Shown here piece by piece: positions 9,182 to 37,542 of a DNA stretch of 40,651 nt. The notes beneath the pieces are model-generated. The model worked only from the letters and a program-made list of their open reading frames with translations, did not search any database and had not been told where the DNA came from. Source of the stretch: an uncultured Clostridia bacterium. GTDB lineage: Bacteria; Bacillota; Clostridia; RGIG6154. Every line of letters begins with the position of its first letter. The first letter of the stretch is position 1. The stretch spans positions 1 to 40,651 of the forward strand of contig CALXJH010000221.1 of NCBI GenBank assembly GCA_944388555.1, written 5' to 3'. A program made the position numbers and the translations under genes.

Positions 9182-9209
9182 TAAATTTATTTAAAAAGGA
9201 GAGAAAAAA

Positions 9210-10811: not shown

Positions 10812-10834
10812 TAACATTTTTTCAAGCAATTAAA

Positions 10835-11026: not shown

Positions 11027-11099
11027 TATATTAAAGTATTTTACTAACTTTTTATCGTTTTGTTATAAGTAGATTCTATAAAAGAAAGGACAGATGTAA

Positions 11100-11528: not shown

Positions 11529-11734
11529 TACAAAATATCTCTAAAAGAAACCTTTGACTTTTCTGATTGTTGCGTACGGCGCAGCAGTCAATGGTAGTAA
11601 ACGATAACAAAAGAGCAAGCTATGCCGCCGTATTGTGCTCAGTTTGCGCTATTTTATAACTTTCAAAATTTACAGTGTAAAAGAATATGGCGTTTTTAAT
11701 TGTTTTTTGGCATAATCATTTCTTCCGTATACAG

Positions 11735-11762
11735 AAACATCTCTTTTTAGGGATGTTTTTTT
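11735..11762 (+). terminator. Rho-independent terminator
   Basis: Stem AAACATCTC / GGGATGTTT (one G-U pair), 6-nt loop, followed by a T-run. Confidence 0.55.
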
Positions 11763-11803
11763 GTATTCATATTACTGAAATTGGAAAAATTCCGTTAAAA
11801 GTA

Positions 11804-11832
11804 TTGCTTTTTTTAAAAAGTTGTAGTATAAT
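11804..11832 (+). promoter_or_regulatory. Putative promoter of the oxidoreductase-uxuA-SDR unit
   Basis: -35 TTGCTT, 17-nt spacer, consensus -10 TATAAT (11827-11832). The 16-mer ATTGCTTTTTTTAAAA is identical to 90-105. Confidence 0.5.
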
Positions 11833-11878
11833 AAAACAAATAATAAAAATATTATACTTTTGAAAGGAAAGACATGTT

Positions 11879-13045
11879 ATGGATAAAGTTATCTTAGGTA
11901 TTATCGGTTATGGTAATATGGGTTCGGATCATGCAAAACGCATCACAAACGGCGATATTCCTCGCATGAAACTGGGCGCTATTTGTGATATTGACAAGGC
12001 AAAGCTTGAAAAGGCGAAAGCTGTTTTAGGGGAAGATGTCGCTTATTTTGAGAACTACAAGGATATGTTGGCATCTGGTAAGATTAACGCTGTTTTGGTT
12101 GCTACACCGCATTATCTGCATCCTGAAATGGTGATTGACAGTTTTAAAGCGGATATGAATGTAATTTGTGAGAAACCGGCGGGTGTATACACCAAGCAGG
12201 TTAATGAAATGAATGAAGCTGCGAAAAAATACGGCAAAGTATTTTCTATGATGTATAACCAAAGAACAAATCCTTTGTATGTTAAAGCACGTGAACTGAT
12301 CCAGCAAGGTGAGCTGGGCGATTTAAGACGAATGGTTTGGATTATTACAAACTGGTTCCGTACACAGGCTTATTACGATTCCGGTACATGGAGAAGCACA
12401 TGGAGCGGAGAAGGCGGCGGTGCGCTCATCAATCAGAACCCACATCAGTTAGATCTTTGGCAGTGGCTGTGCGGTATGCCTAAAACGATTCGCAGCACTT
12501 GCTATTATGGCAAATGGCATGACATTGAAGTAGAAGATGATGTTACGGTATTTGCAGAGTATGAAAATGGAATGACTGCGACTTATATTACATCAACCGG
12601 TGAAGCTCCTGGAACAAACCGATTGGAAATTACCGGTACAAAGGGTAAAATTGTAATAGAAGGCGATAGCATGAAATTCTGGCAGAACAGAGTGGATGAT
12701 GTTACATATTGCAAAACCGCAAAAGGCGGATTTGGTACACCCGAACTTTGGGAAATTCAGGTTCCAGTCAAAAAGCCGGCTTATTTACAGCATAACGGCA
12801 TTTTGAAGAACTTTACAGATGCTGTTTTAGATGGTGCGGAATTGATTGCACCCGGCGAAGAAGGCGTTTTGGGTTTAAACATTTCTAATGCCATTCATAT
12901 GTCTTCATGGACTGGTGAAACCGTTACTTTACCGGTGGATCCTGATAAATTTTACGCATTGCTCCAGGAGAAAATTGCAAATTCAAAAGTTGTGAAAAAA
13001 GAAGCAAAAGCGGTTGAAAGTGTAGATATGAGCTCTACTTTTTAA
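11879..13045 (+). CDS. Gfo/Idh/MocA family oxidoreductase (YteT-like)
   Basis: N-terminal Rossmann GIIGYGNMG, the family motif ICEKPAG, and a C-terminal alpha/beta domain. Confidence 0.85.
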   Translation: MDKVILGIIGYGNMGSDHAKRITNGDIPRMKLGAICDIDKAKLEKAKAVLGEDVAYFENYKDMLASGKINAVLVATPHYLHPEMVIDSFKADMNVICEKPAGVYTKQVNEMNEAAKKYGKVFSMMYNQRTNPLYVKARELIQQGELGDLRRMVWIITNWFRTQAYYDSGTWRSTWSGEGGGALINQNPHQLDLWQWLCGMPKTIRSTCYYGKWHDIEVEDDVTVFAEYENGMTATYITSTGEAPGTNRLEITGTKGKIVIEGDSMKFWQNRVDDVTYCKTAKGGFGTPELWEIQVPVKKPAYLQHNGILKNFTDAVLDGAELIAPGEEGVLGLNISNAIHMSSWTGETVTLPVDPDKFYALLQEKIANSKVVKKEAKAVESVDMSSTF

Positions 13046-19142: not shown

Positions 19143-19918
19143 AAACGGTAACACGGCCTACCATTCATGCCGCATGGGATTTGGCGGCAGAAGTTACAGT
19201 AATGAATGGCGAGAATTCTGATACGAAGTATTTGAACCAAAAATATGCGGCAGTTTTTTCAAGCCGTCAGGAGGCGCTTGCGGCAGAAAGCGGTGCGGTG
19301 TCGCCCGGAAGTGAGGCGCAGGATGTGAAATATACCTATGTTTCTCTCGGAAGCTATGATATCTCGGATCAGGCAACGGGCGCCGTTGTTTTAAAAGCGT
19401 CCGGCGGGTGTTATACCATGGCATCTAAAATCAAACTCGTGGAGCTGTCAGATGAATATGTAATTGCACCAGGGGATACGCGGATTATGAAAGATGATGC
19501 ATGGTCGAATGTCGCAGGATATGGAAGCGGCCAGGTTTATTTTGCCAACAGGGCGGAAAGCCGTATTACGTATATGCTTGAAAATCTGGAGCCAGGTCGG
19601 TATGAACTATTTGTAGAGAATGCTACACGGCCTACCGTTCATGCCGCATGGGATTTAAACGCAAAAATTGAGTTTACGGCAAGCAATCAAACAGCCACAG
19701 TGTACCTGAATCAAAAATACGCGGTTGCATCTTGGGAAAAAAGTGAAGCGGCAGCGGCGGTTTCGGGTGCTGCTGTACCCGGCGAAAGTGCGGGAGATGT
19801 AAACTATACGGATGTTTCATTAGGTGTTTATGATTTTTCGGATGACGGGAACGAAAAAGTTTCCATCATAGCATCAGGAGGAGGGTATACCATGGCGTCT
19901 AAAATTAAGCTGGTATCA
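18984..19918 (+). repeat. Tandem duplication of a ~155-aa domain (A1 18984-19450, A2 19451-19918); a shorter third variant lies at 19952-20338
   Basis: A1 and A2 share ...GRYE..RPT(I/V)HAAWDL..YLNQKYA..GGxYTMASKIKLV. The nucleotide stretch ACACGGCCTACC(A/G)TTCATGCCGCATGGGATTT occurs at 19151-19182 and 19626-19657. Confidence 0.8.
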
Positions 19919-22900
19919 ACAGATAAAGCATTGACTCAAATTCCGGAAAGCATAGAGCCAATTATTATAAACAATGAAGATACTGCAAAGTTTGAAACTT
20001 CTGGAAATTGGATCGTAAGTGGACTTAAAGGATATGGCGGTTCGGGAACGATTTATACCACCGATTCTTCTGCTAAAGCCAAGTTTAAAATAGAAAACAT
20101 TCCTTCCGGATTATATAAAGTGTCGTTTTATTCGCTGTCTACAACTTCCAATCCGCAGACAGAAATAGAAATCTTCCACCAAAACAGTACAGACAATCTT
20201 ATTTTTGATGCAACAAAAGCCGATGGATTCTCCACCTTAGGATTTTATCTTTTTTCAGGGGACGGAACGGAATATTTAATGGTGACAGGAAGAAGCAGCA
20301 CCAATACCCGCGTAGACAGTATCATGCTTGAAAAAATACCGGGCGGTTCGGATACGGAAATAGAAAAACATTTATTACAGATTCCAAATGTGGATTTGGA
20401 TTATGTAAGCCAGGATTTATCTCTGCCGCAAGTTGGATATAATGGTACCCAAATCTCGTGGCAATCCGATAAGCCGGATGTCGTTTCAGCGCAAGGAGAA
20501 GTTTTTTCGTCTGTGCTTTCCCAAAAGGAAATTGTAACAATGACTGCATTTATTTCAAAAGAAGGACAGCAGACACAAACAAAAACGTTTACTTTGACTG
20601 TGATTCCAAGTACGCCGCTTGTGCTATCAGGTGACGGAATGGTGATAGATGGTGTTTCGATAGACGCAGAAGACCCCTTTACTTTTACTGTAAGAGGAGA
20701 CAGGTATCCGAGTGTCAAATATAGACCGGCAGACGGATTTTTTGATCTATCCGGCTATGAAGTGCTAGCTGTAACTTACGAAAATGTGGGCAGCGTGCCA
20801 TTTTCTATTTCTACCTGGGCTGTTTCTGACGGTTGGGGCGGTATTGGAGGTGTTGGATACTATCAAGGAGAGGCAACCGGGCCCGACTACATTTCTATAA
20901 ATCCGGGTGAAACCAAAACGCAAAACATTTATGTGCAATCTTTCTTCCCGGATCAAAGAAACAAAATGATTGATCCGTCTAATATTACAGCGATACATAG
21001 CGTTTTTAATTCCGGCACACAGAAAGGTGCGAAAGCAAAAATTTTGAGTGTACAGGCGCAGGGCGTTTATACGGATCATTATAATCCTTCCGAAAGACTG
21101 ATAGCGCCTGTTATGCAGGAAGGACAGCCTGAAAAAGGAAAAAGGGTTCGAGTTGGAACAGAGGAGCTTTATTACGCATTGTATTTACCGAAAAACTGGG
21201 TGGATTTGCCAGACAAAAAATATCCGGTTATCGTAGAGTTTAACGGTAATATTTTTTACAGCGGCGGATGCTATTCTACCGGTCTTCCGGAAGATTGCAT
21301 GATGGGTTACGGCGTATCGGAAGGATATGATTATATTTGGATATCCCTTCCCTTTGTATCAGAGGCGGATACCGTTGCTACAAATGCGTGGGGAAGTGCG
21401 CAGAAAACCAGGGATTATACCTTGAAAACTGTCAGAGAAGTATTAGAAACCTATCATGGAGATCCTGCCGGCGTGCTTATTGCCGGATTTTCCAGAGGCG
21501 CTATTTCTACAGGCTATATTGGTCTGATGGATGACGAAATAGCAGATACCTGGATTGGATTCCACGCTACCCAGCATACCGATGGAAGCAATTGGAACGG
21601 TGCGCAGATTGGTTATGAGGAGCGGGGTGTAAGAGTTTTAAACCGCGCAGCAATGATTGTGGATAACGGCTCTTACCCTTGGGCAACCTTGATACCGAGT
21701 TTGGGTTATCCCTTATTGAATTTAAGTTCCGGAATTGTTTGGCATACACCGAGTAATTCTATGGATTACAGAGAGTCATCCCAGCAGGAAAGACAATGGT
21801 ACCGCGAAACCTATTTGAATAAACCCGGTACAAAAGCGTTGACCGGAAAGGTAACCGACAAAAATGGCAATGCTGTTTCCGGTGCGTTGGTTGAAACAGG
21901 AAAAACGCATTTTACAAAAACCGATATGGAAGGCAATTATACATTAGACGGCTTGATTCAGGGAGAAAGAGAAATTTCAGTTACCGTAAATGGTGTAAAA
22001 ATGAAATCGGAACAGATAGATGCTTTTGAAACCAGTGTGTTAAATTTCGTTCTGTCTGATTATGAAGAGCAGCTGTATACGGCACAAATATCCGGAAATG
22101 TTTTATCGGATAATACAGATGCTCAAATAACCGTGACGCTTATAAATAAAGATACCGATGTTTTATCGGTTAAAAAATATCAAACGGATGGTAGCTTTGC
22201 GTTTTTAAATCTGGAACCCGGCAATTATATTTTGAAAATAGAAAAGATGGGATATCTGCCTGAAATAACAGAGGTTTCCGTACAGGAAGCAGAGCGCAAA
22301 GTGCTTGAAGATATAGTGCTTTCACGTTTTGGATTAGCAGAAAGCGAGACCAATCTTTTGATTATGCCCGGAGATTTCTTTACAGATATGGGTACATGGA
22401 AGCGGACCGAAGATGGCGGATACATTGTATTGGAAGGTTTATCCGACATTTCCGCGCATGCACAGGAGGCGAGCACAAAAATAAAGATTCCCAAAGACGG
22501 TGTTTATTATGTGTGGGCGCTGGCAAAGAATGATAGCAATGCTGCAGGAAATTCCTCCTGTAAAATCGGTGTCAACGGGATAGAACTCCCAAACTACATT
22601 GGAGATTACAATGCAGCGTCCGACATTCAAACAACCGGCGCATACAGTTGGGATTTAGCTGGGCAAATTGCACTCAATAACGGTATGGCTTCTGTTTCAC
22701 TGCTGGATGTAAATAAAAATTGTGCAAGCGTAGCTGCCATTATATTAACTACGGATAAGACTTTCAATGGGTTGGGCGAAGTTGATTTACGTGAAGTAAA
22801 GAGCTACCAGGCAGAGGTATGTACAGGAAATTTAGATATCTCTGGTTTAAATGTGAACAGAAACACGATATCCTTTACCTTAAAGAACAGAACGGACGAT

Positions 22901-23149
22901 TTGTTGGAAAAATGTGTCATGCTTGTGGTTCTTTATGCTGCACAGGGTAAAATAGTGGATGTACAAACACGGAAGTTGGAGACACCGCTTCCGGCAAGAA
23001 AAAGTTTGCAGCAGACAAATCTCGTTTTTGATGCCGATAAGCAATGGACAACAGGAAAAGTTATGTTATGGGAAAGCTTTGAGACAATCAAGCCTTTGCA
23101 AACGCCTGAGCTCTTTACTTTTCAAGCGGCAGATACAATGACGGATTGA
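19181..23149 (+). CDS. Main body of the second giant secreted enzyme: repeats A1-A3, atrophied Ig-like domain, beta-sandwich, alpha/beta esterase, 2 CarboxypepD_reg-like domains, shared module copy 5, C-terminal beta domain
   Basis: 1322-aa ORF whose frame is open from 19133. GFSRG nucleophile elbow (21485-21499, Ser codon 21491-21493) follows YALYLPKNW..YPVIVEFNGN. GKVTDKNGNAVSGALVE..DMEGNYTLDGL. There is no signal peptide of its own, so it needs the upstream fragment. Confidence 0.85.
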   Translation: MAAEVTVMNGENSDTKYLNQKYAAVFSSRQEALAAESGAVSPGSEAQDVKYTYVSLGSYDISDQATGAVVLKASGGCYTMASKIKLVELSDEYVIAPGDTRIMKDDAWSNVAGYGSGQVYFANRAESRITYMLENLEPGRYELFVENATRPTVHAAWDLNAKIEFTASNQTATVYLNQKYAVASWEKSEAAAAVSGAAVPGESAGDVNYTDVSLGVYDFSDDGNEKVSIIASGGGYTMASKIKLVSTDKALTQIPESIEPIIINNEDTAKFETSGNWIVSGLKGYGGSGTIYTTDSSAKAKFKIENIPSGLYKVSFYSLSTTSNPQTEIEIFHQNSTDNLIFDATKADGFSTLGFYLFSGDGTEYLMVTGRSSTNTRVDSIMLEKIPGGSDTEIEKHLLQIPNVDLDYVSQDLSLPQVGYNGTQISWQSDKPDVVSAQGEVFSSVLSQKEIVTMTAFISKEGQQTQTKTFTLTVIPSTPLVLSGDGMVIDGVSIDAEDPFTFTVRGDRYPSVKYRPADGFFDLSGYEVLAVTYENVGSVPFSISTWAVSDGWGGIGGVGYYQGEATGPDYISINPGETKTQNIYVQSFFPDQRNKMIDPSNITAIHSVFNSGTQKGAKAKILSVQAQGVYTDHYNPSERLIAPVMQEGQPEKGKRVRVGTEELYYALYLPKNWVDLPDKKYPVIVEFNGNIFYSGGCYSTGLPEDCMMGYGVSEGYDYIWISLPFVSEADTVATNAWGSAQKTRDYTLKTVREVLETYHGDPAGVLIAGFSRGAISTGYIGLMDDEIADTWIGFHATQHTDGSNWNGAQIGYEERGVRVLNRAAMIVDNGSYPWATLIPSLGYPLLNLSSGIVWHTPSNSMDYRESSQQERQWYRETYLNKPGTKALTGKVTDKNGNAVSGALVETGKTHFTKTDMEGNYTLDGLIQGEREISVTVNGVKMKSEQIDAFETSVLNFVLSDYEEQLYTAQISGNVLSDNTDAQITVTLINKDTDVLSVKKYQTDGSFAFLNLEPGNYILKIEKMGYLPEITEVSVQEAERKVLEDIVLSRFGLAESETNLLIMPGDFFTDMGTWKRTEDGGYIVLEGLSDISAHAQEASTKIKIPKDGVYYVWALAKNDSNAAGNSSCKIGVNGIELPNYIGDYNAASDIQTTGAYSWDLAGQIALNNGMASVSLLDVNKNCASVAAIILTTDKTFNGLGEVDLREVKSYQAEVCTGNLDISGLNVNRNTISFTLKNRTDDLLEKCVMLVVLYAAQGKIVDVQTRKLETPLPARKSLQQTNLVFDADKQWTTGKVMLWESFETIKPLQTPELFTFQAADTMTD
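22352..22765 (+). repeat. Module copy 5 of the unassigned domain shared with the 1809-aa protein
   Basis: LLIMPGDFFTDMGTW..GVYYVWALAKND..CKIGVNG..YSWDLAGQIALNNGMASVSLLDVNKNCASVAAIILTTD. Same motif order, but more diverged. Confidence 0.55.
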
Positions 23150-25860: not shown

Positions 25861-26040
25861 TGCCTGCGTTTAACGAATATTTGTGGAATGCAAAAACATA
25901 TATTCGATGCCATATTCTTTTTGAACTAAATCATTTGCTTTTTATTGCTGTATACCATTATTGCGCATATAGTACGCATCTGTGGATAGTATTGTGAATT
26001 GAACTTTTCAGCGTTGTCATAATTTGGGTACTTGCTCCAG

Positions 26041-26069
26041 TTGACAATAATAAACGATTAACGATAAAT
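26041..26069 (+). promoter_or_regulatory. Near-consensus sigma-70-type promoter at the head of the ABC / nucleotidyltransferase-kinase island
   Basis: -35 TTGACA (26041-26046), exactly 17 nt of spacer, -10 ATAAAT (26064-26069). Confidence 0.55.
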
Positions 26070-26090
26070 GAAAAAAGACATTTTAAGAAA

Positions 26091-26258
26091 ATGAGTCGAG
26101 TATATACAGTGTTTATAGGGGGGACAATTGTGGCGTCTATTATTGTGTCTGGTATAGAACAATATGCATTTTCTTATTCAGTGGGAGTATGTTCAACATC
26201 TTTGTCGTTATTGCCTGCATATTTTCGGGAAAATTCGGAGCTAATTAATAAGATTTGA
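26091..26258 (+). CDS. Hypothetical 55-aa hydrophobic, Ser/Thr-rich peptide (below the track's 60-aa cutoff)
   Basis: ATG 26091 to TGA 26256-26258. MSRVYTVFIGGTIVASIIVSGIEQYAFSYSVGVCSTSLSLLPAYFRENSELINKI. It is the first ORF after the promoter, but has no convincing SD. Confidence 0.25.
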   Translation: MSRVYTVFIGGTIVASIIVSGIEQYAFSYSVGVCSTSLSLLPAYFRENSELINKI

Positions 26259-26302
26259 ATGTTGGTATCAACATTTGAAAATACAAGAAAGGAGAGAAGA
26301 AA

Positions 26303-26551
26303 ATGAAAAAGATATATTTAAAGGAATACATTATTAAACAAATTTTTTATTCTAATTATATTCCATTCTATCTCGACAACGGTGTAGAACGTAATTATAA
26401 ATTGCTAAATAATTTGCTTAAGAATGTTTTGATTTACGAATATGAATTTCTGCCGGAAAAGAAAAGTGTACATTATCTTGCGGATTTTTGCGAAAACATT
26501 TTTAAAAACTTAATTCATAAAAAGGGGGATGAGCGATGTCGGATGTCTTAA
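26303..26551 (+). CDS. 82-aa hypothetical protein, possible PqqD-like peptide-recognition element (RRE)
   Basis: AGGAG 7 nt upstream. Overlaps the next start by 16 nt. Very AT-rich. The C-terminal pattern YEFLPEKKSVHYLADFCENIFKNLIHKKG resembles PqqD's Y.v..e....dv..Fl..L...glI. Confidence 0.6.
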   Translation: MKKIYLKEYIIKQIFYSNYIPFYLDNGVERNYKLLNNLLKNVLIYEYEFLPEKKSVHYLADFCENIFKNLIHKKGDERCRMS

Positions 26552-28284
26552 AAAAGCCGTTCAAATCGGTTGCCGTATGTTTTAAATACGACAGGTTATA
26601 CAGCATTCTGATTCTCATTAGTTTTATCATCTCCGGCGCAATACCGCCACTGGAAACGCTCATCTTAGAGCGTGTTTTGGTTTCAATACAACACAAAGCA
26701 TTTGCGCCGATACTGATTCTTATTTTGCTTTTGCCGCTGCTTGCGGGTCTTGCGGGCAAGCATTTGCTGAAATATGCAACGCTTAAGCTGAATAACACGC
26801 TTTCGGTTAACTTTGAATCGGACTATTTAAATCAGCTCATTCATTTGGAATATGCTTGTTATGAAGAGCCTGATATACGGGATGCCATCGCTCGCTTTTC
26901 CGCTCCGGCAAGCTTGATAGCCGATACATACATCACCCTGCTACGGCTGTTTAGTTGCTGCATTTCCATAGTCGGTTATCTTTTCGTTTTCTTCTCGGTT
27001 TCCGCTTGGACGCTCCCTGCAATTTTAGTTTTATTTGCAGTATCTGCAGCATTCGGATTAAGCGAAGTGAAAAAACTAAGACGGGTACAGGTCAGCCAAA
27101 CCGTAGAGCAAAGAAAGGCAAGCTATATCGGCAATTTGTTCACCAACAAAGCCACATTAAAAGAAATGAAATTATTTGGATTTTCGGATTATTTAATCGG
27201 AAGATTTCACTTACTCAGCGATAAGGCTATCAAAAAGGAACTTAAAGTTACCCGGAAAGGATTTTTGAACGGAATTGTTTCACAGCTTTTGAACCTGCTG
27301 ATTACGGCTGCAGGCATTTCTTTGCTGATTGTTTTGGCACTTCGAAAGGAAATAGAAATGTCCCGAGTTATCGCTCTTGCTACAGCTCTGCCGACTTTAA
27401 CAAGATACGCCGCCTGGCAAATTCCGCTGTCTTTGTCAGACATAAGCAAAAAAAATAATATATGGAAAGACTATGAGCTGATTGTAAGCTGCCCTAAGGC
27501 GAAGGAAGGGACAGTCGAACAGATAGAACATCCAGTCATAGAATTCCGCAACGTGTTTTTTACATATCCCGGGGTGGACAGCCCTGTCTTAAAAGGTTTT
27601 TCCGCAGTGATTTCGCCCGATGAGAACACGGCAATCGTCGGCATGAATGGGTGCGGAAAGTCAACCATCATTAAACTGATTTTAGGTCTGTACCAAGTGG
27701 ACAGCGGCGAAATTACAGTTGGCGGCATAACGCTTGAGCAGCTATCCTACAAAGCAAAAGTGTCTTTGTTTACCGCAGTATTCCAGGACTATCCGATTTA
27801 TCAGACAAGCATTGAAGACAACATTTTGGTTTCTGACAGCCGCATTCCCGCAGACAACGAAAAAATTTCCAATATTTTATCTCATACGAATTTAACGGAT
27901 ATGATCGAACGCCTGCCGAACGGACTGCACACAAAAATCGGACGCTTATATGCGGACGGAATCGAACTTTCGGGGGGCGAAGGGCAGAAAATCGCCATTG
28001 CACGAGGTCTTTATTCTTCAAGTAAATTTTTGATTTTAGACGAGCCGACAGCCGCTTTGGACCCGAAAACGGAAAGCCAGATTTATGAAAGCTTCTCCGA
28101 GATGTTTAAGCAACGCTCGTGCATTATTATTTCACACAGACTGGCAGTTGTCAAAATGGCAGACAAAATTCTGTTTGTGGAGAACGGACGCGTTAAAGAA
28201 TCCGGCACGCATGATGAGCTGATGCGTTTAAACGGAAAATACGCAAAAATGTTTGCTGCGCAGGCGCAGTGGTATATGAAATAA
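26536..28284 (+). CDS. ABC exporter half-transporter (TMD-NBD), pair 1 subunit A
   Basis: About 330-aa 6-TM domain, then Walker A GMNGCGKST, Q-loop FQDY, signature LSGGEGQK, Walker B FLILDEPT, H-loop ISHRL. Confidence 0.9.
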   Translation: MSDVLKKPFKSVAVCFKYDRLYSILILISFIISGAIPPLETLILERVLVSIQHKAFAPILILILLLPLLAGLAGKHLLKYATLKLNNTLSVNFESDYLNQLIHLEYACYEEPDIRDAIARFSAPASLIADTYITLLRLFSCCISIVGYLFVFFSVSAWTLPAILVLFAVSAAFGLSEVKKLRRVQVSQTVEQRKASYIGNLFTNKATLKEMKLFGFSDYLIGRFHLLSDKAIKKELKVTRKGFLNGIVSQLLNLLITAAGISLLIVLALRKEIEMSRVIALATALPTLTRYAAWQIPLSLSDISKKNNIWKDYELIVSCPKAKEGTVEQIEHPVIEFRNVFFTYPGVDSPVLKGFSAVISPDENTAIVGMNGCGKSTIIKLILGLYQVDSGEITVGGITLEQLSYKAKVSLFTAVFQDYPIYQTSIEDNILVSDSRIPADNEKISNILSHTNLTDMIERLPNGLHTKIGRLYADGIELSGGEGQKIAIARGLYSSSKFLILDEPTAALDPKTESQIYESFSEMFKQRSCIIISHRLAVVKMADKILFVENGRVKESGTHDELMRLNGKYAKMFAAQAQWYMK

Positions 28285-28297
28285 GGAGGGTTACGGA

Positions 28298-29008
28298 ATG
28301 AATGATTATTGGAAAAACCGAAAACTCCTTTGGAATACTTATAAACTGATTTTTGTTTCGCACCCCTTTCTTACGGTTTTTGAGGGGCTAACCTACCTAT
28401 TTAATGCGCTTATTGCCGGCATAATGCCTTTAGCGTGGAAAATGCTGTTTGAAGGTATCAGCCGTATTATAAGCGGTGCTTCCCTGCAGAAAATATGGTT
28501 TCCGATAGGTGTGTTTTTCGCCTTGCAAAGCCTTGAAATCGCTTTACTTTTGCTTAGCAGAATGCCCGACCGCGTGTTTGGATACCGGCAAAAAATAACC
28601 ATGAGTCTAAAAGAAAATTTGTGTGGTAAAGCATCTAAAATTCCTTTTATTGAATTTGAAAATGATGATATTTACAACGCTTTTATGCGGGCGGAAAAAG
28701 CCGTCAGTTCAAACACGCCCATACTTTTGTTAAACTACATGTATCAGACGCCGGCGCTGCTGATATCCATACTGACCATGACGGTTACCATGTGGACGTT
28801 CTCATTCTGGTTTGTTCTTGCGGCAGCCCTTTCCGTCCTGCCCGCAACAATTATTTACTGCAAAAAGGGAAAAACAACCTACAATTATCAATACGGTCAG
28901 ACCGCAAAACTAAGAATGAGAGATTATTTTCGGTCGCTGTTTTTGCATTTAAGCAGTGCCAGAGAAATGCGGGTGTATAATTCCTCGGGCTTTTTCAAAG
29001 ACAAATGA
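28298..29008 (+). CDS. ABC exporter half-transporter pair 1 subunit B, N-terminal TMD part (ends at an in-frame TGA)
   Basis: AGGAGGG RBS. 236 aa of TM helices only. TGA 29006-29008 is in the same frame as the ORF that follows. Confidence 0.75.
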   Translation: MNDYWKNRKLLWNTYKLIFVSHPFLTVFEGLTYLFNALIAGIMPLAWKMLFEGISRIISGASLQKIWFPIGVFFALQSLEIALLLLSRMPDRVFGYRQKITMSLKENLCGKASKIPFIEFENDDIYNAFMRAEKAVSSNTPILLLNYMYQTPALLISILTMTVTMWTFSFWFVLAAALSVLPATIIYCKKGKTTYNYQYGQTAKLRMRDYFRSLFLHLSSAREMRVYNSSGFFKDK

Positions 29009-29014
29009 CTGCGC

Positions 29015-30037
29015 TTGCAAAAAACAATCTGCAAAGAACTCCTGGAACTTTACAACACTCACTTTAAGCTAGATTTGCTTATTGAAAGCTTCAGGGTAAT
29101 CGGATACGGATTGGGAACGCTTTTATCCGTTGTTTTTTTCAGCATGGGGGCTATCTCAATCACTTCACTAGGTGCATGTTTAAAGTCTTTCGGATCACTG
29201 CAAACGACTTATGATTTGTTTTTAAACAATTTAAATTCCATGCAGGAATCCTATTTATTCTTTAACGATTACCTTGCGTTTATGAAAGTAAAAGAGGGAC
29301 CGCCCCAAAATTGTCATACGGCAGATACATTTGATTCGGTTGCCGCCGAGCACCTGTCGTTTAAATATCCGAATCAAACGAAAAATGCTTTGCATGATAT
29401 TTCTTTTTCGGTAAAGCAAGGCGAAAAAATAGCCATTGTGGGCGAAAACGGTTCGGGAAAAACAACACTGTGCAAGATTCTGGCAAATTTATATTCTCCG
29501 ACAGGCAAAATTTTATGGAACGGGCTTCCGTATAATCGTTGCAGTGTTTCCGCACTTTTTCAGGATTATGTAAAATACTGCGCAACCGTTAAATTAAATG
29601 TTGTGCTGAGTGACATTAAAAACATAGATAAGGACGCGCAAATTTCAAAAATCCTTTCCGAAAACGGACTTGGCAAACTGCCGCTCGACTTAAAACTGGG
29701 AAAAGAACTGGACGGAACAGAGTTATCCGAAGGACAATGGCAAAGACTCGCGCTTTCGCGCGCTGAATTTCCGAATTCGGAGATTTTAATTTTTGACGAA
29801 CCAACAGCGGCTGTAGACGCAGTTGCGGAAAGAGAGCTGTTTGAAAAGCTCATTAGCAATTCGGACGGCAAAACGCTTTTCCTCGTAACCCACAGAATCG
29901 GTTCTGCACGGTTGGCAGACCGAATTATCGTGTTAGAACACGGAAAAATTGCAGAAACAGGCACACACGAACAATTGATGAGCAATAGGGGAAAATACTA
30001 TGAAATGTTTAACGCGCAAGCAAAATGGTATGCGTAA
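29015..30037 (+). CDS. ABC exporter half-transporter pair 1 subunit B, C-terminal TMD part plus NBD (same frame as 28298-29008)
   Basis: Walker A GENGSGKTT, Q-loop FQDY, degenerate signature LSEGQWQR, Walker B ILIFDEPT, H-loop THRI. Joined, 28298-30037 codes for about 579 aa, close to its neighbours (582, 595 and 601 aa). Confidence 0.75.
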   Translation: MQKTICKELLELYNTHFKLDLLIESFRVIGYGLGTLLSVVFFSMGAISITSLGACLKSFGSLQTTYDLFLNNLNSMQESYLFFNDYLAFMKVKEGPPQNCHTADTFDSVAAEHLSFKYPNQTKNALHDISFSVKQGEKIAIVGENGSGKTTLCKILANLYSPTGKILWNGLPYNRCSVSALFQDYVKYCATVKLNVVLSDIKNIDKDAQISKILSENGLGKLPLDLKLGKELDGTELSEGQWQRLALSRAEFPNSEILIFDEPTAAVDAVAERELFEKLISNSDGKTLFLVTHRIGSARLADRIIVLEHGKIAETGTHEQLMSNRGKYYEMFNAQAKWYA

Positions 30038-30106
30038 AGATTTTGATAAGCTGTATTCAAAATATATATTTGTTTTTAAAAAATAGGCACATGGAAATAC
30101 AAAGGG

Positions 30107-31288
30107 GTGACAAGATTAATAGAGAACGAGGTTTATACTTTGCAAAATTTCATAAAACAAGAAAAAGTTCGTTTAAGTATGAATACAGATGAAATTGTGC
30201 ATAAATACAAGCTATATAATTTGGCTCCTGAAGATTTATTAAGCAGAGAGGCACGATTGTTTCGCGCGTTTACATGCAATATACAAATGCAAAAAAATAA
30301 ATTATTTTTAAGCGAATTAACCAATATAATGAAATTTGCTTCTTCTGATATGAAAATCGTTTTATTTAAAGGCCTTTCTTTAGCCTATAACTATTATACT
30401 AATCCGGAGGAAAGGTTGTTTAACGATGTAGATATTTTTACGCACGATGTTAATAAAGTTATAAATCTTTTGATTTCACAAGGGTATAGCCTCGAAAAGC
30501 AATATAAAAGTAGGTACTATTTATATATGGGAGAGTGTTACGAGCCTGATTCTAATGGATATTTTAATAAGTTAAACTTGAATCACATTGAGTGCTATAA
30601 AGACGTAAATAATATGTGTATTGTGATAGAGATTCATAAGAATATATTAAACAAGTTGCGTTATCCGGATGTAAATCAAGACGAAATTTACGAAAGATGT
30701 ACATCTAATTTTCTTGATATAAATGCAGTGTTTGAACTTGAAAAACACGATTTATTGCTTTACCAGGTATGTCACTTTAGTACGCATTTGTGTGCATATA
30801 TGTCATATATTGACAAAGATCGTTTGGAAACACTTCCTTCCATTCCGATCAGATATATTCACGATATAATGTATGAAGTGGAAAGCTGGATTATTCATTG
30901 TCTTGATTGCACTGTTTTACATAGTGCTGGTGTCCGGCTTTGTGGGAAGAACATTGCTTTAATTGGTCAAAGTATGTCTGGAAAGTCAACATTGACGCAC
31001 TATTTATGTAAGCGAGAAGATGGAAAATATTTTGATGATGACTGCATTTATTTACACAAAAATAAAGTATGGGGATTTAATTTTCCAATGGCTCTTCGTG
31101 CACTCCATGATAATTGCCAGGGAGTTATTGGGTATACTGATGATGCAGTAATGAAAAACCGTTGTTTGATAGATATAGATAACAAGATTCAATCATCAGG
31201 AAAAATGACATTGTTCTTTTTCCCCATTATAATAAATTTGGTGAAAATACTATTGATAAAGTTTCAACAAGCAATTTGTATGTGTTGA
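30107..31288 (+). CDS. Fusion protein: PF14907-like nucleotidyltransferase domain plus HPr-kinase-like P-loop domain (C-terminus frame-broken)
   Basis: N-domain VLFKGLSLAYNYYTNPEERLFNDVDIF (DVD at 30425-30433). C-domain LHSAGVRLCGKNIALIGQSMSGKSTL (Walker A 30965-30991) and FDDDCIYL. The start is uncertain (GTG 30107 or ATG 30179). The in-frame tail after FFFP looks like nonsense. Confidence 0.8.
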   Translation: MTRLIENEVYTLQNFIKQEKVRLSMNTDEIVHKYKLYNLAPEDLLSREARLFRAFTCNIQMQKNKLFLSELTNIMKFASSDMKIVLFKGLSLAYNYYTNPEERLFNDVDIFTHDVNKVINLLISQGYSLEKQYKSRYYLYMGECYEPDSNGYFNKLNLNHIECYKDVNNMCIVIEIHKNILNKLRYPDVNQDEIYERCTSNFLDINAVFELEKHDLLLYQVCHFSTHLCAYMSYIDKDRLETLPSIPIRYIHDIMYEVESWIIHCLDCTVLHSAGVRLCGKNIALIGQSMSGKSTLTHYLCKREDGKYFDDDCIYLHKNKVWGFNFPMALRALHDNCQGVIGYTDDAVMKNRCLIDIDNKIQSSGKMTLFFFPIIINLVKILLIKFQQAICMC

Positions 31289-31428
31289 TTTTAAACAATA
31301 TTAGACATAAGAAGAATATGGCTACATTATATTCAGATGTGGGAAATATTGTTTCTAAGGCTAGAGGTTACAGTTTATTTTATACTAATACGGAAAACGC
31401 TATGCACTTAATTAAAAGCATATTATAA
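31183..31428 (+). pseudogene. -1-frame continuation encoding the expected C-terminus of the HprK-like domain
   Basis: The -1 frame is open from 31183 and reads ...LFPHYNKFGENTIDKVSTSNLYVLILNN...ARGYSLFYTNTENAMHLIKSIL-stop (31426-31428). This fits the family's C-terminal pattern. One extra base in the T5C4 run at 31217-31225 would join the frames. Confidence 0.55.
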
Positions 31429-31487
31429 GCGCTAACAATAATAAAGAAAGAAAGAACTACAAAAAAGGAATCGGTGAATTATAAGCA

Positions 31488-33275
31488 ATGGACAACAGGC
31501 ATATTTTTAACAACTTAATATATATAGCTAAAAATTGGATTCGGTGGGATAAAAAGGGCACAATTGTCGCTTTCTTAAAAATTCCGGTTGCAATTTTAAT
31601 CCCGATTGTTACAGCTTTTTTTAACAAAACATTTGTTGAACTTATAGCAAATAAGGCAAGTGCAGAAGTATTTATTGCGATTTTGGGTTCGGTTTTCCTA
31701 TTAACGGCTGTGCTGAATTGGCTTTTGCATTTGATAACCGAAAAAACGGAGGTATTTCAGCTTAACATCAGTATTCATTATGCAATTGAAGCGTTTGAAA
31801 AACTTTTGAAAATGGATTATGAGCTTTTAGAGAGCTACGATGGACGCGCAAAATTTGACCGCTGCCGCCGGTTTGCGCTTGAAGGCAGCAATTCGGATGG
31901 TGCGTGGGCAGTTGTAAGACTGATAGGTCTTTCGCAAAGTTTGTTCGGAATTTTAACCTATGCATCCATTCTAAGCGTGATACATCCTTTGCTGGTTCTT
32001 GTTATTTTAGTAACTTGCGCACTAGAATCGGCTACATACCATTTCATCAATAAAATTGCTGCCGAAACGGAAGACAAAATGGTAGAAAGCGAAATGAAAT
32101 TTTCTTATTTTTTTCGTTTGGCAACCGATTCAGAAAAAGGAAAGGATATTCGCTTGACCGGGGCGGCGGCATGGCTTAAGCGAACGTTAAACAAGAGCAT
32201 TTTAGCATATTTAAAAATCATGCATAAATTTACCACTGAAACAACACAGTTGACCGTTTTACAAGCCTTGTGCGCCATGGTACGGGACGCAGCAATATTC
32301 GGATTTTTGATTTGGAGTGTGCTGATGAAAACGATTGCCGTTTCGGATTTTGTATTCTGCTTTGAACTTGCGGCAGGATTTTCGGTTTGGATTAACGGCG
32401 TTGCCGGACATGTGGCAAGTCTGAAACGTATATCAATTGAATGCGGCAAATATTGTGAATTTATGGCGTTAGATAAGAAAGCAACCGAAAAAAAACAAAT
32501 TTTGCGGAATGAAGAGATTAAAAGTGTTGAATTCCGCGATGTATGCTTCGGTTACGAAGAAAACAATATGGTTTTAAAACATATCAGTTTTACCATAAAA
32601 AAGGGCGAACGTATTGCTGTGGTAGGCGAAAACGGAGCAGGTAAAACGACGCTGATAAAATTGCTATGCGGCCTTTATACGCCCACATCGGGGCAAATTT
32701 TAATAAATGGGCATGATTTGAGGTGTTTAGATGTAAAAGATTATTTTAGCCGACTGTCCGTTTTGTTTCAGGACTATACATTGCTCCCGATGAGCATAGC
32801 GGAAAATATCACGCTTTCACATAAATACAGCCGGCAAAAAGTGGATAAGGTTTTAGAGAAGGTCGGACTTACAAAGAAAATTGAAAAATTAAAGAACGGT
32901 CTTGACACAAAGTTAGGGCAGCAGTTAAATGAGCAAACTGTCTCTCTTTCGGGTGGGGAGCTGCAAAGACTGCTTTTTGCCAGAGCACTTTATAAGGATT
33001 CGCCGATTTTGATTTTGGACGAACCTACGGCCGCGCTTGACCCGCTCGCGGAGGAGGCCCTTTATTTACAGTATTTCGGGCTGACGAAAGAAAAAATATC
33101 GGTTTTTATTTCGCACAGACTGAACTCTACAAAATTCAGCGACAAAATCTTGTTTATGTGTGATGGTGAAATCGCGGAACAAGGGACTCATGAAGATCTG
33201 ATGGCGCTTCGCGGAAGGTATTGGGATATGTATAATGTACAAGGCTTTTACTATCGGGAGGAGAGTGCGATATGA
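31488..33275 (+). CDS. ABC exporter half-transporter (TMD-NBD), pair 2 subunit A
   Basis: Walker A GENGAGKTT, FQDY, LSGGELQR, ILILDEPT, ISHRL. Confidence 0.9.
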   Translation: MDNRHIFNNLIYIAKNWIRWDKKGTIVAFLKIPVAILIPIVTAFFNKTFVELIANKASAEVFIAILGSVFLLTAVLNWLLHLITEKTEVFQLNISIHYAIEAFEKLLKMDYELLESYDGRAKFDRCRRFALEGSNSDGAWAVVRLIGLSQSLFGILTYASILSVIHPLLVLVILVTCALESATYHFINKIAAETEDKMVESEMKFSYFFRLATDSEKGKDIRLTGAAAWLKRTLNKSILAYLKIMHKFTTETTQLTVLQALCAMVRDAAIFGFLIWSVLMKTIAVSDFVFCFELAAGFSVWINGVAGHVASLKRISIECGKYCEFMALDKKATEKKQILRNEEIKSVEFRDVCFGYEENNMVLKHISFTIKKGERIAVVGENGAGKTTLIKLLCGLYTPTSGQILINGHDLRCLDVKDYFSRLSVLFQDYTLLPMSIAENITLSHKYSRQKVDKVLEKVGLTKKIEKLKNGLDTKLGQQLNEQTVSLSGGELQRLLFARALYKDSPILILDEPTAALDPLAEEALYLQYFGLTKEKISVFISHRLNSTKFSDKILFMCDGEIAEQGTHEDLMALRGRYWDMYNVQGFYYREESAI

Positions 33276-35077
33276 AAAAAAGTAATTTCCGGCGTGCTCT
33301 TGCATACATACATTCATATAAAAAAAGCGCTGTACTGACAGCGGTATTTACTGCAATTCTGCGGGCAATAACGCCGTATATATACATTTTTGCTACGGCA
33401 AAAATTATCAATCTGCTGATGAAAAATGCCGACTTAAAAAGTGTTTTATTTGTTGCAGGTTTTGCAGTTATTGCTCAAATGTTGCTTTCCGTTTTAAAAT
33501 ATTGGCTTGAAAACTTACATCTGGAAAATCAGGATGGACTGAACGCATATGAGAAAACGCAAATTACCAAGGCGCTTTTGGATATTGATTATAATCGGTT
33601 TGAAGGCACTTTTTTAGAACAAAAAGTTCTTCAGCACCGTGATGAACTTTCACGCGAAGGCGGTATCTTAAATAAGTATATCAATAGCATTGAAAACTTT
33701 TTAGAATCGGCTTTAAGTCTTTCTGTTGCGCTGATTTCGCTGGTTCCTTTCTTTAAAAGTTTTATTATTGCCGGCGAAACAGGGGTTATTGATTCTATGT
33801 GGTTTGGGATTATTCTAATTGTTTTAACCCTTGTTTTTGTACTTTTGCTCCTTGCGTTAAAGGGTAAAATTGCAGAAGGAAATGTTTTGCTGCGCAACAA
33901 ATACGCAAAGCATAATTTGATCTTTTCTTATTATAACGATTTTGTTTGCAATTATAAAACAGGAAAAGAAATACGGATTTTTAACCAGGCACCGATTATA
34001 CTGGAACAGATAAACAGCGAAATGTTTAAAAAAGGCGTCCCTCTGCAGCAAAAAATTGCTGACAGAAACAGTTGGACCTTAGCGCTTGATGACTTGATTT
34101 CTGCGGCTATTCTGTTTGCCTTTTCGCTGCTCGCCGGAATAAAATGTGCGGGCGGGTTTTATGCTGTTGGAGATGCTGTCGCTTATATCGCGTGCTTTAC
34201 ACAGGTGACAAAAGCGCTGAGCACACTTACCGGAATGTATGGTAATTGGAAAATTTTATCACCGCGTACTGAGCTCTACAACAGCATTTTAGAAATGGCA
34301 AAAACGGAAAACAAGCAAACTGTTCGCTGCCCTAAGCTATTGGAACAAATTCAATTTGAAAATGTTAATTTTTCTTATGAAGGCGCAGACCATCTTGCAT
34401 TACGGAATTTCAGCCTAACAATTCATGCAGGCGAAAAAATTGCGGTCGTCGGCGAAAACGGTTCGGGCAAAACAACGTTTGTAAAGCTCCTTTGCGGTTT
34501 GCATGCGCCAAACAGCGGGCAGATTTTGTTGAACGATACAGACATTTCATCGTTTGACAAAACCGAATATCAGAATTTATTCTCCGTGGTTTTTCAGGAT
34601 TCCTATTTGTTTTCCTTGCCTTTGGGCGAAAATATTGCGGTGAACGAAAAATTTGACGATAACCGCGTTAAAACGTGTTTGGAGCAAGTTGGTTTTACAA
34701 AAAAATACGGCTTAAATACAGTGCTTTACCGCGATTGTGATAAGTGCGGCGTAAATATTTCGGGCGGCGAGGCGCAAAAATTAACGCTGGCACGCGCTCT
34801 TTACCGAAATAAGCCTGTAATCGTGTTGGACGAGCCGACCTCGGCGCTTGACCCGTACGCCGAATTTGAACTTTATAGACAGTTTTCTAAATTGACAAGC
34901 GGGAAAACGGCAATTTATATTTCACATCGCCTGTCAAGCTGTCGGTTTTGTGATAAAATTGCAGTGTTTCATCATGGTGAACTTGTTCAATTCGGAACAC
35001 ATGATGAACTGATGCAGAATGAATCGGGTAAGTATTACGCGCTTTGGACCGCGCAGGCTAAATATTATAGTTTGTAA
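33272..35077 (+). CDS. ABC exporter half-transporter (TMD-NBD), pair 2 subunit B
   Basis: ATGA overlap with the previous gene. GGGAGGAG RBS. Walker A GENGSGKTT, FQDS, ISGGEAQK, VIVLDEPT, ISHRL. Confidence 0.9.
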   Translation: MKKSNFRRALAYIHSYKKSAVLTAVFTAILRAITPYIYIFATAKIINLLMKNADLKSVLFVAGFAVIAQMLLSVLKYWLENLHLENQDGLNAYEKTQITKALLDIDYNRFEGTFLEQKVLQHRDELSREGGILNKYINSIENFLESALSLSVALISLVPFFKSFIIAGETGVIDSMWFGIILIVLTLVFVLLLLALKGKIAEGNVLLRNKYAKHNLIFSYYNDFVCNYKTGKEIRIFNQAPIILEQINSEMFKKGVPLQQKIADRNSWTLALDDLISAAILFAFSLLAGIKCAGGFYAVGDAVAYIACFTQVTKALSTLTGMYGNWKILSPRTELYNSILEMAKTENKQTVRCPKLLEQIQFENVNFSYEGADHLALRNFSLTIHAGEKIAVVGENGSGKTTFVKLLCGLHAPNSGQILLNDTDISSFDKTEYQNLFSVVFQDSYLFSLPLGENIAVNEKFDDNRVKTCLEQVGFTKKYGLNTVLYRDCDKCGVNISGGEAQKLTLARALYRNKPVIVLDEPTSALDPYAEFELYRQFSKLTSGKTAIYISHRLSSCRFCDKIAVFHHGELVQFGTHDELMQNESGKYYALWTAQAKYYSL

Positions 35078-35178
35078 ATTAAAAAAAGATTTTGACTCAT
35101 TGTATATAAAATTTTCAGACAGTCTTTATCAAGATGGAAAAATCAGCTTTTCATAAATCAACGAAAAGAGACAATCAT

Positions 35179-36049: not shown

Positions 36050-36746
36050 ATGGAATTTCATAATAAAACCGTAATAATTACAGGCGCATCTATCGGAATT
36101 GGCAAGGCAACTGCCATCGAATTTGCAAGAATTGTTGATATCAATGCCGAAGGACTGAGGAAATCAATTTAATGGGTGCAAATATAACACCATACATTTG
36201 CGATGTGCGCGATGAACAAAGAGTTCACGAGGGGGTAATTCAGGAAATTATTAACCGATATGGCAACATGGATATTTTGCTTAATAAGGCAGGATTTTGG
36301 AGAATGTGGAAGCCGTTTGTAGAAACAACCAGCGACGAATGGAAAAAGCGATTAAATGTAAATGGCTTGGTGCTGTTGTATTTTACCCATGCGGTTCTTC
36401 CCAATATGATAGAAAACGCTTACGGAAGAATTATCAACATTGGCTCTGTTGCGGGTGTATACGGCATTGCGAATATGGCTGATTACTCAATGGCTCAAGG
36501 TGCAGTAAGCCTATTTACAAAAGTACGCGCAAAAGAGGTGGTTTTCTAAGGTATTATGGTAAACAATGCTGTTCCGGGAAGTGTCAGAAACGAAGGGCAA
36601 AAGTTGAAACAGATTTGTGTTATATGGGAAGAAATGGAGAATTGGAAAAATATGCGTACTTGATTTGATTTTTAGCAAGCGATAAAACTGCCTATATAGC
36701 AGGTCAGGATTATCAAATTGATGGCTGCAAAAAAATTAAAAGATAA
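36050..36746 (+). pseudogene. Decayed classical SDR oxidoreductase
   Basis: GGGAGG RBS, MEFHNKTVIITGASIGIGKAT. The beta2 segment is deleted (FAR-IVDIN). Frame break at 36170. In-frame TAA 36547-36549. A second -1 break lies before 36621. In-frame TGA 36666-36668 inside LI*FLASD. YxxxK is degraded to YSMAQ. It ends AGQDYQIDGCKKIKR-stop. Confidence 0.8.
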
Positions 36747-36777
36747 CCCATACAATCATGAAAAGGAGAAAATACAG

Positions 36778-37542
36778 ATGGAATTTCAAGGTAAAACAGC
36801 GATATCAACGGGTGCAGCATCCGGCATGGGCTTGCTCTTTGCGCAAAATTGGGCAGATCTTGGTGGAAACGTCGTTATGTGCGATGTTAATGAAGAAGCG
36901 CTCAAAACATTTGCTGAGGAGATAAACAGTAAGAAGAAAGGCAAAGCGATAGGTGTTGCCTGCGACGTAAGAGACTACTTTCAGGTGTGCGCTGCGCGGG
37001 ACAGGGCGGTTAAAATTTTCGGAAGTATTGACATAATGTGTAATTTTGCGGGTGGAACTGCAGTCCGTATGCAGAAAGTAGACCATACGCAGTACCCCGA
37101 ATTTCCTGATGTGCCCATTGATGTTTACGACTGGGGCATTGATGTAAATTTGAAAGGCCCTTTCTATTTTGCACACGCTGTACTGAAACAAATGAGAGAA
37201 CAAAAAAGTGGGCTTATTATCAACATCGGCTCAATCACCGGACAGGAAGGTGACGGATACGGAATGGATTATCCGACATCAAAAGCGGGTCTTATGTTTG
37301 GACTTACAAAATCCATCGCACAATACGGCTCGAAATATGGCATCCGATGCGTATGCGTTTCGCCCGGACCTGTTCTAACCCGTGCAGCTATGGCGAACAT
37401 GAAAACGCTTCTGGGCAGAGCTGCAGAGCCGCAGGAGATCATAGATCTAATTCTATTTATTGCATCAGATAAGGGACAATCCATTAACGGAGAAAATATT
37501 ATGATCGATGGTGGCAGAAATGCTGCGGGGAGGCGGTGCTGA
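36778..37542 (+). CDS. SDR family oxidoreductase (intact)
   Basis: AAGGAG-type RBS and ATG 36778 (MEFQGKTAISTGAASGMG). Catalytic YPTSKAG. C-terminal SINGENIMIDGG. Confidence 0.85.
   Translation: MEFQGKTAISTGAASGMGLLFAQNWADLGGNVVMCDVNEEALKTFAEEINSKKKGKAIGVACDVRDYFQVCAARDRAVKIFGSIDIMCNFAGGTAVRMQKVDHTQYPEFPDVPIDVYDWGIDVNLKGPFYFAHAVLKQMREQKSGLIINIGSITGQEGDGYGMDYPTSKAGLMFGLTKSIAQYGSKYGIRCVCVSPGPVLTRAAMANMKTLLGRAAEPQEIIDLILFIASDKGQSINGENIMIDGGRNAAGRRC

Follow-up and report, generated by a model that had tools for sequence, protein, structure and literature searches.

The window analysed here is a 40,651-nt stretch of DNA (positions 1–40,651 of contig CALXJH010000221.1, from an uncultured Clostridia bacterium), and the subject is an island of putative peptide-tailoring and export genes at 26041–35077. 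Comparison with related loci indicates that this island is very probably a mosaic remnant, left by recent decay, of an agr-linked radical S-adenosylmethionine (SAM)/SPASM cluster for a peptide that is made by the ribosome and then modified post-translationally (RiPP). A first-pass annotation, made from the sequence of the window without database searches, had taken it for an orphan system in which a RiPP recognition element (RRE) and a nucleotidyltransferase-kinase fusion are bracketed by two ATP-binding cassette (ABC) exporter pairs. The open reading frames (ORFs) themselves are as described there. All are on the same strand, at 26091–26258, 26303–26551, 26536–28284, 28298–29008 with 29015–30037, 30107–31288, 31488–33275, and 33272–35077; the second (82 aa) overlaps the start of the third by 16 nt, and there is an ATGA overlap between the last two. 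Related loci are referred to below by number (L001 and so on), as are their proteins (P0002 and so on).

The first-pass annotation was also right that the window has no known core RiPP enzyme. Pfam, NCBIfam, and family hidden Markov model (HMM) scans found no radical SAM, PqqD, YcaO, Lan, or lasso enzymes in any frame, and no lasso cyclase (Asn-synthetase-like) or transglutaminase-like B2 peptidase was seen among the island ORFs with Pfam and NCBIfam. Over the six frames of the window, the family HMMs gave a best E of 0.9 for the maturase, nothing for PqqD, and 1.2 for the precursor, that is, no remnant of any of them. The trio of kinase, nucleotidyltransferase, and PqqD-like partner proposed for the island is consequently incomplete here, with no PqqD or RRE protein beside the kinase. 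Judged by its sequence, the island encodes no precursor, core enzyme, RRE, complete kinase, or complete nucleotidyltransferase. With the precursor, core enzyme, and complete tailoring genes missing, the locus would be unable to make or tailor a peptide, and the present strain is presumably a non-producer. Homology to the intact cluster stops at ~35115, and the nucleotidyltransferase gene found downstream in L001 and L033 is missing in the window. A plasmid search with the whole island gave zero matches.

The nucleotidyltransferase-kinase fusion

The 393-aa ORF at 30107–31288, described earlier as a single gene fusing two domains, does physically exist, but it consists of two truncated gene pieces joined on this contig alone. 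From the comparisons given here it is a deletion scar between two truncated stand-alone genes, not a bifunctional enzyme. The nucleotidyltransferase domain was correctly recognized: residues 58–229 match PF14907 (NTP_transf_5) at 71.5 bits against a cut-off of 31.2 (E 1e-19), and the motifs quoted for the ORF (FKGLSLAYNYY..NDVDIF, LHSAGV, GQSMSGKSTL, and FDDDC) are all found in it. The domain is incomplete, covering profile positions 47–196 of 249, compared to 47–249 in the intact 514-aa protein P0002; the final fifth of PF14907 is missing from the piece, as is the entire C-terminal half of the protein. Over the N-terminal 63% of the ORF, P0002 has 90% identity to it, and the two diverge right after ..IRYIHDIM, leaving a 5' gene fragment of ~250 of the 514 codons (30107–30866).

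The rest is the 3' part of a gene for an HprK-like P-loop kinase (30867–31428), beginning at codon 79 of 265. The intact 265-aa kinase P0003 is 77% identical to the C-terminal part of the ORF, with the match starting at its residue 79 (..MYEVESWII). By tblastn, P0003 residues 79–198 correspond to 30866–31225 and residues 190–265 to 31198–31425; a 1-nt gap near 31206, relative to both L001 and L002, has moved the last ~70 kinase codons to another frame (31198–31425). This frameshift and an in-frame TGA at 29006–29008 were both noted in the first-pass annotation as possible signs of decay, and both were confirmed. Identification of the fragment as an HprK-like kinase is borne out through its intact relatives, by their HprK_rel_A matches and PEPCK/HprK-like fold (see below), although it is weak in the window itself (HprK_rel_B 15.9 bits, E 0.005; HprK_rel_A unmatched in NCBIfam). 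In a PDB sequence search, the kinase profile gave weak P-loop matches, with HprK at E 0.1–0.2, and the nucleotidyltransferase gave none.

The junction can be placed to within a few bases. By blastn, positions 1–3296 of L003, a contig with an ABC-ABC-nucleotidyltransferase arrangement, match window 27565–30872 at 89% identity and are followed by 1.4 kb absent from the window, while L001 4709–8954 matches window 30867–35115 at 84%. In a three-way sequence comparison the two end points, 30872 and 30867, enclose the 6-nt sequence TAATGT (30867–30872), which is present in both parental genes, the L003 nucleotidyltransferase and the L001 HprK-like gene. Overlap of the two homologies in a short sequence common to both parents is the signature of a microhomology-mediated deletion.

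The combination of domains appears nowhere else. The 393-aa ORF returned five proteins from a search of 5.8 billion. In a HMMER search for the fusion architecture among 1.84 billion (1.84e9) representative proteins there were 139 matches, 45 to the nucleotidyltransferase half alone (median 509 aa) and 95 to the kinase half alone (median 272 aa), and none except the window's own protein covered both halves.

Intact relatives of the cluster

The gene order in the relatives is precursor, radical SAM enzyme (~450 aa), PqqD (~100 aa, PF05402), HprK-like kinase (265–280 aa), and then ABC genes. PqqD lies beside the kinase gene in L001, L004, L005, L006, L008–L011, L025, and L033, which is every locus with sufficient upstream sequence, and a radical SAM gene is present in all of these that extend past PqqD; L005 is cut inside PqqD and has PqqD only. 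Pfam families recorded for the relatives are limited to Radical_SAM, PqqD, ABC_tran, and NTP_transf_5. The island can no longer be considered an orphan, since equivalent loci have, immediately upstream of the kinase gene, a canonical radical SAM/SPASM maturase, PqqD, and a precursor. The earlier suggestion of a link to RiPP tailoring fares better, the trio of kinase, PqqD, and nucleotidyltransferase being found in the intact L001 and L033.

The L033 unit is complete, with precursor, radical SAM, PqqD, kinase, two ABC genes, an S24-like peptidase, and a PF14907 nucleotidyltransferase. L001 has in addition, upstream, the tail of a LytTR-type regulator, an AgrC-like kinase, agrB, and agrD, the last directly before the precursor. 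The AgrD-like peptide (49 aa, 2227–2376) scores 21 bits against TIGR04223 (cut-off 19). In L025, from a human-gut Clostridiales metagenome-assembled genome (MAG; MGYG-HGUT-04030), the order is ABC-ABC-kinase-nucleotidyltransferase-precursor-radical SAM-PqqD-kinase-ABC; a deletion of the window type in this layout would give exactly the arrangement seen in the window.

Two details of these loci can be added. For the L001 AgrD-like peptide, a thiolactone ring of five residues, CYVMY (MKKIKMFLIKHAGTLAAIALMISISSLDSACYVMYHQPRVPAMLDEYRR), is predicted. The L025 region (80–12346) holds two adjacent radical SAM peptide units; the ABC-ABC-kinase-nucleotidyltransferase set is preceded by a precursor of another kind, a radical SAM gene of 347 aa, and an ORF resembling a peptidase, and the second unit (precursor-radical SAM-PqqD-kinase-ABC) comes after it.

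The precursors of the relatives are homologous, with a leader of the form Y-x-K-P-x-V-x-[IV]-Y...E-x-E-A-x-A and Cys/Ser/Thr-rich cores, which in L001 and L033 are identical (CSGCGGKCHRGSN). Their maturase has a CxxxCxxC motif (CKLRCNYC) and a SPASM-type C-terminal Cys cluster (CKNCIAFRVCGAGCP). It is nearest to the SCIFF and PapB ranthipeptide maturases (E 1e-20), with a best score of just 72 bits against a cut-off of 425; being far under every curated cut-off, it is a member of no named family. The intact kinases P0003 and P0005 score 32.5 bits (E 5e-8) and 30.2 bits against HprK_rel_A (TIGR04352), for which the cut-off is 200 bits, and on these scores the relation to HprK-related kinases A and B (TIGR04352/TIGR04355) is distant, short of membership. 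An AlphaFold2 model of P0003 (pLDDT 73) compared to the PDB with Foldseek matched PEPCK (E 8e-7, TMq 0.43–0.50) and HprK/P (E 2e-4, TMt ~0.5). The motifs GxSxSGK[ST] and DDDC are invariant in the kinase family alignment.

The precursor HMM gave only noise (E >1) on the window and on the part of L003 after the nucleotidyltransferase gene. A 37-aa Cys-containing ORF in L003 (4322–4435) was considered as a precursor and rejected as unlike the family.

In a profile scan of genome contigs, the kinase alignment found no relatives and the maturase alignment found 13 loci. The same pair of radical SAM and PqqD genes occurs in L020 and L021 (~7700–9700 in both) and in L023 (116–2045), which belong to MAGs with the labels Planctomycetaceae, Methanocorpusculum (an archaeon), and Treponema. 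L020 and L023 also have a matching precursor, and none of the three has an HprK-like gene within reach. Because the pair occurs there with no kinase nearby, the kinase seems to be an accessory found in a subgroup of Clostridia, and the core pair appears from its distribution to be horizontally mobile.

Damage was seen in other members of the family as well. In L014 (128–2685) the HprK-like gene is split (128–652 and 2335–2685) by an insert of ~1.7 kb with transposase-like ORFs at 712–1215 and 1302–2264, an independent inactivation in the same gene family. The L010 precursor (1984–2109) is frameshifted relative to the near-identical L009 (8029–8157), reading MKYMKPQVAIY and then, after the shift, ELCKN..., versus ...YDEEVMQELEAAAGSTCNC... 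in L009; this could be either a decaying copy or a low-coverage assembly error.

The agrB remnant and left-hand junctions

Upstream of the exporters is an agrB pseudogene remnant (25887–26258, forward strand), comprising the C-terminal ~117 codons. Residues 99–215 of the L001 AgrB (PF04647, E 1e-35) align to window 25887–26234 with 87% aa identity by tblastn, and L001 1808–2237 aligns to window 25888–26313 at 90% by blastn. The remnant is interrupted by a TGA at 25995–25997, where the intact L001 has TTA; the same TGA is found in an independent assembly, L016. Of the agr cassette, the window was found to keep only AgrB residues 99–215, interrupted in frame by the TGA, and ~4 codons from the start of agrD. 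The 55-aa hydrophobic ORF at 26091–26258, listed separately in the first-pass annotation, is the last third of this remnant and matches no Pfam or NCBIfam family.

The near-consensus promoter of the first-pass annotation (TTGACA-17 nt-ATAAAT, 26041–26069, forward strand) is also inside the agrB coding remnant. Its –35 element (TTGACA, 26041–26046) is indeed perfect and its spacer 17 nt, but the –10 element (ATAAAT) matches TATAAT at only three of six positions, and the site fails promoter-scan criteria, so that it is not listed by the scan. The region has no excess of promoter-like sites, with 43 observed and 35.7 +/- 6.3 expected from shuffled sequence. The 17-nt spacing is due to a lineage-specific 3-nt deletion; the intact agrB of L001 has TTGACA, 20 nt, and ATCAAT.

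The 82-aa ORF (26303–26551, forward strand), put forward as the RRE, has three segments of different origin. Homology to L001 stops at 26313, 11 nt into agrD, and the ORF takes the agrD ribosome binding site and MKKI start. The middle segment, 26314–26503, is 190 nt of AT-rich DNA (GC 0.253). From 26504 the sequence is the native 5' leader, with its ribosome binding site, and the start of the first exporter gene, ABC1a, as in L018. On this evidence it is a chimeric junction ORF, not a gene. Among 5.8 billion proteins its only homologue is itself; it matches no Pfam or NCBIfam family, PqqD included; and hhalign with the PqqD alignment of the intact relatives (A3) gives a probability of 0.2%. 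The RRE assignment was rejected on these grounds. An AlphaFold2 model, from the single sequence only, has helices throughout at a pLDDT of 49. The middle segment was also considered as the tail of a second HprK-like gene, in a model with two tandem units; this too was rejected, as tblastn and an 83-sequence family HMM found nothing in six frames.

The left-hand arrangement, including the agrB TGA and the 82-aa ORF, is found in two independent ENA assemblies with 99.4–99.7% identity. Recurrence of the junctions in independent assemblies shows that they are real and fixed in a circulating lineage. There is a 6-nt in-frame indel in ABC1a (26788–26793) between the window and the contigs L016 and L017, otherwise identical to that same extent.

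The ABC exporters

The four ABC exporter subunits reported earlier all have PF00005. ABC1a (26536–28284, forward strand) is an intact half-transporter of 582 aa with PF00005 and PF00664, 88% aa identical to P0143. ABC1b (28298–30037, forward strand) is a half-transporter pseudogene with PF00005 in its 3' piece; its stop at 29006–29008 is a TGG-to-TGA change relative to the intact 579-aa gene of L003. ABC2a (31488–33275, forward strand; 595 aa, PF00005 E 7e-37) is the orthologue of L001 5329–7113, and ABC2b (33272–35077, forward strand; 601 aa, PF00005) has a degenerate signature motif; both are intact half-transporters. When an uninterrupted frame with transmembrane domain (TMD), nucleotide-binding domain (NBD), and Walker A/B motifs was looked for, ABC1a, ABC2a, and ABC2b passed and ABC1b failed because of its TGA.

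In another genome, L018 (2954–6474), the ABC1a-ABC1b pair stands alone between an S10 ribosomal protein operon and a lipoprotein-like gene. It is 88.7% nt identical to window 26504–30038 and has its own TTGACA-containing upstream region. Its separate occurrence suggests that the pair is a separable module that moves independently of the peptide cluster.

Pairwise ratios of nonsynonymous to synonymous substitution (dN/dS) against the relatives are low for all island pieces (0.08–0.20), which suggests that the divergence is mostly older than the decay and that the lesions are recent. They are lowest for ABC2a (0.076) and ABC2b (0.095), compared to 0.14–0.20 for the stumps. As a test of relaxed selection the ratio was set aside; low everywhere, it indicates only the recency of the lesions, with no finer discrimination.

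Proposed history and alternative explanations

The intact form of the cluster would have had agrA, agrC, agrB, and agrD beside the precursor, then the maturase, PqqD, the HprK-like kinase, two ABC half-transporters, and the PF14907 nucleotidyltransferase. In such an ancestor, expression would have been controlled by agr; PqqD would have presented the leader to the radical SAM maturase, which would have cross-linked cysteines, perhaps as thioethers given the family resemblance; the kinase and then the nucleotidyltransferase may have decorated Ser/Thr, by analogy to PsmK and PsmN of pseudomycoidin (PMC9266682; see also PMC6993621); and the ABC heterodimer would have exported the product.

Compared to this form, the window has five lesions. 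First, agrC and the initial ~98 codons of agrB have been lost, and the stump that is left carries a TGA. Second, agrD breaks off after ~4 codons and is followed by AT-rich DNA of unrelated origin and then by an ABC1a-ABC1b-nucleotidyltransferase module from elsewhere. Third, ABC1b has its nonsense mutation. Fourth, the microhomology-mediated deletion begins at ~codon 250 of the nucleotidyltransferase gene and ends at kinase codon 79, staying in frame by chance; judging from L025, L001, and L033, the genes for the precursor, the maturase, and PqqD were probably lost with it. Fifth, the kinase stump has a –1 frameshift.

Several points weigh against this history. The source of 26314–26503 was not found, with no sequence match. 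The junction between nucleotidyltransferase and kinase and the frameshift are seen on one contig only. The deleted content is reconstructed from relatives at 30–85% identity, no contig of the same lineage spans the interval, and the 633 nt after the L003 nucleotidyltransferase gene show no recognisable precursor. Residual activity of the fusion is possible, since its frame is open across the junction and both the NDVD motif and the P-loop are preserved. Finally, the chemistry of the intact cluster, both thioether formation and phosphorylation, is a reading of family resemblance only.

The surviving ABC1a, ABC2a, and ABC2b could still be expressed and act as exporters or as immunity pumps, which leaves the self-protection option of the first-pass annotation possible. 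A fuller version of this, compatible with decay and adding a function for the surviving genes, would have a non-producer in which ABC2a and ABC2b (perhaps also ABC1a) are under selection to export or resist a peptide made by related gut producers. These three are the sole intact genes of the island, the Walker A/B motifs are in place, dN/dS is lowest in the ABC2 pair, and the ABC1 pair exists by itself in L018. Set against this, most of what pairwise dN/dS records is time that preceded the decay, its differences carry no statistical test, ABC1b is inactivated, and the promoter upstream is only a partial match to consensus; retained immunity is possible but less likely than not.

It could also be that the cluster is intact in the strain and that the contig has been misjoined or miscalled. 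The contig is apparently metagenome-derived, the fusion protein is found on it alone, the frameshift adjoins an A-run, and a neighbouring short-chain dehydrogenase/reductase (SDR) gene is broken too. The left-hand junctions, agrB TGA, and 82-aa ORF are nevertheless present in two assemblies made independently from other samples; an assembler misjoin would need far more than the 6 nt of microhomology; the two nonsense changes are substitutions rather than indels; and five independent lesions agree in direction. An artefact accordingly seems improbable.

The undescribed, core-enzyme-less system of the first-pass annotation, in which the 82-aa RRE would guide a peptide to the fusion enzyme and two ABC pairs would export it, has in its favour a significant PF14907 match, preserved kinase P-loop and DDDC motifs, an in-frame fusion, and closely packed, co-directional genes, but it is very hard to maintain when both domains are truncated (the kinase lacking its first 78 residues and frameshifted), the fusion is a deletion scar unique among the 1.84e9 representatives, the supposed RRE is a junction ORF of three unrelated segments with neither homologues nor PqqD similarity, the 55-aa ORF is an AgrB tail, nothing resembles a precursor, and the relatives possess a radical SAM core enzyme, with separate intact genes in the close ones.

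Comparison with known systems

Decay of a radical SAM cluster, the reading preferred here, invites comparison with the thioether RiPP clusters of the ranthipeptide and sactipeptide type (SCIFF TIGR03974, PapB NF047865, CefB, RumMC). The relatives resemble these in their short, Cys-rich precursor, radical SAM enzyme of ~450 aa, PqqD-type RRE, and ABC exporters. They differ in having the RRE as a separate protein and in their additional HprK-like kinase and PF14907 nucleotidyltransferase. The window, without maturase, RRE, or precursor (all deleted, on the history proposed above), would be a remnant of such a cluster rather than a member of the group.

The second comparison is with the tailoring genes of lasso peptides, for which paeninodin and pseudomycoidin are the examples (the kinases PadeK and PsmK, the nucleotidyltransferase homologue PsmN, and the HprK-related kinase A set of NCBIfam). 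Pseudomycoidin is phosphorylated by its kinase on the C-terminal Ser, and a hexose is attached to the phosphate by PsmN (PMC9266682). An HprK-like P-loop kinase, PqqD, and a PF14907-type nucleotidyltransferase occur together in L001 and L033 as well, and the cores of the relatives have Ser/Thr near the C-terminus. In contrast to the lasso set, there is no lasso cyclase or leader protease in the window or any relative, with a radical SAM core enzyme instead; P0003 falls well below the TIGR04352 cut-off, as given above; and both genes in the window are stumps. No paper linking HPr-kinase-like enzymes to radical SAM RiPPs was found in the searchable literature. Within that literature the kinase/nucleotidyltransferase pair is described only for lasso peptides, and its coupling to radical SAM in the intact family would be new.

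The agr cassettes found beside Clostridia peptide clusters are matched in L001 by the LytTR-type tail, AgrC-like kinase, AgrB, and AgrD-like peptide; all that survives of them in the window is the last ~117 agrB codons, interrupted by a stop, and ~4 codons of agrD. As in heterodimeric ABC exporters of the MsbA/ABCB type, which have no C39 peptidase domain, TMD and NBD are present in all four ABC genes of the window, and one partner in each pair has the degenerate signature motif typical of heterodimers. Unlike in those systems, ABC1b is a pseudogene, and no ABC gene of the window reaches an NCBIfam cut-off.

Remainder of the window

No further peptide-biosynthesis genes were found in the rest of the window. 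At 159–5588, 11100–11528, and 19181–23149 are genes for putative surface proteins of large size that carry copper-amine-oxidase N-terminal and CarboxypepD_reg domains, and the remainder consists of sugar-acid metabolism and housekeeping genes, as is typical for a gut Clostridia genome of ~40% GC. The broken SDR gene (36050–36720) is spread over three frames with internal stops, directly upstream of an intact paralogue (36718–37542); it may reflect either several recent pseudogenes in this genome or assembly indel errors.

Implications

As a degraded radical SAM RiPP cluster the window would be ordinary, and its value is mainly as a correction: the fusion ORF and the junction ORFs should not be annotated, mined, or expressed as a system. 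It would also be a clean example of how cluster decay can yield in-frame chimeric ORFs that mimic novel domain architectures. More speculatively, and with the balance of probability on the other side, the island could be the wreck of an undescribed RiPP subclass, in which an agr-controlled, radical-SAM-cross-linked, Cys-rich peptide (with core CSGCGGKCHRGSN in L001 and L033, the nearest intact relatives) was also phosphorylated by the HprK-like kinase and decorated by the PF14907 nucleotidyltransferase, the present strain being a non-producer that keeps the exporters as immunity. If this were true, a kinase/nucleotidyltransferase tailoring pair of the lasso type would for the first time be seen in use on peptides other than lasso peptides. 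The loci worth expressing are those of the intact gut Clostridia family outside the window, such as L033, L001, and L025.

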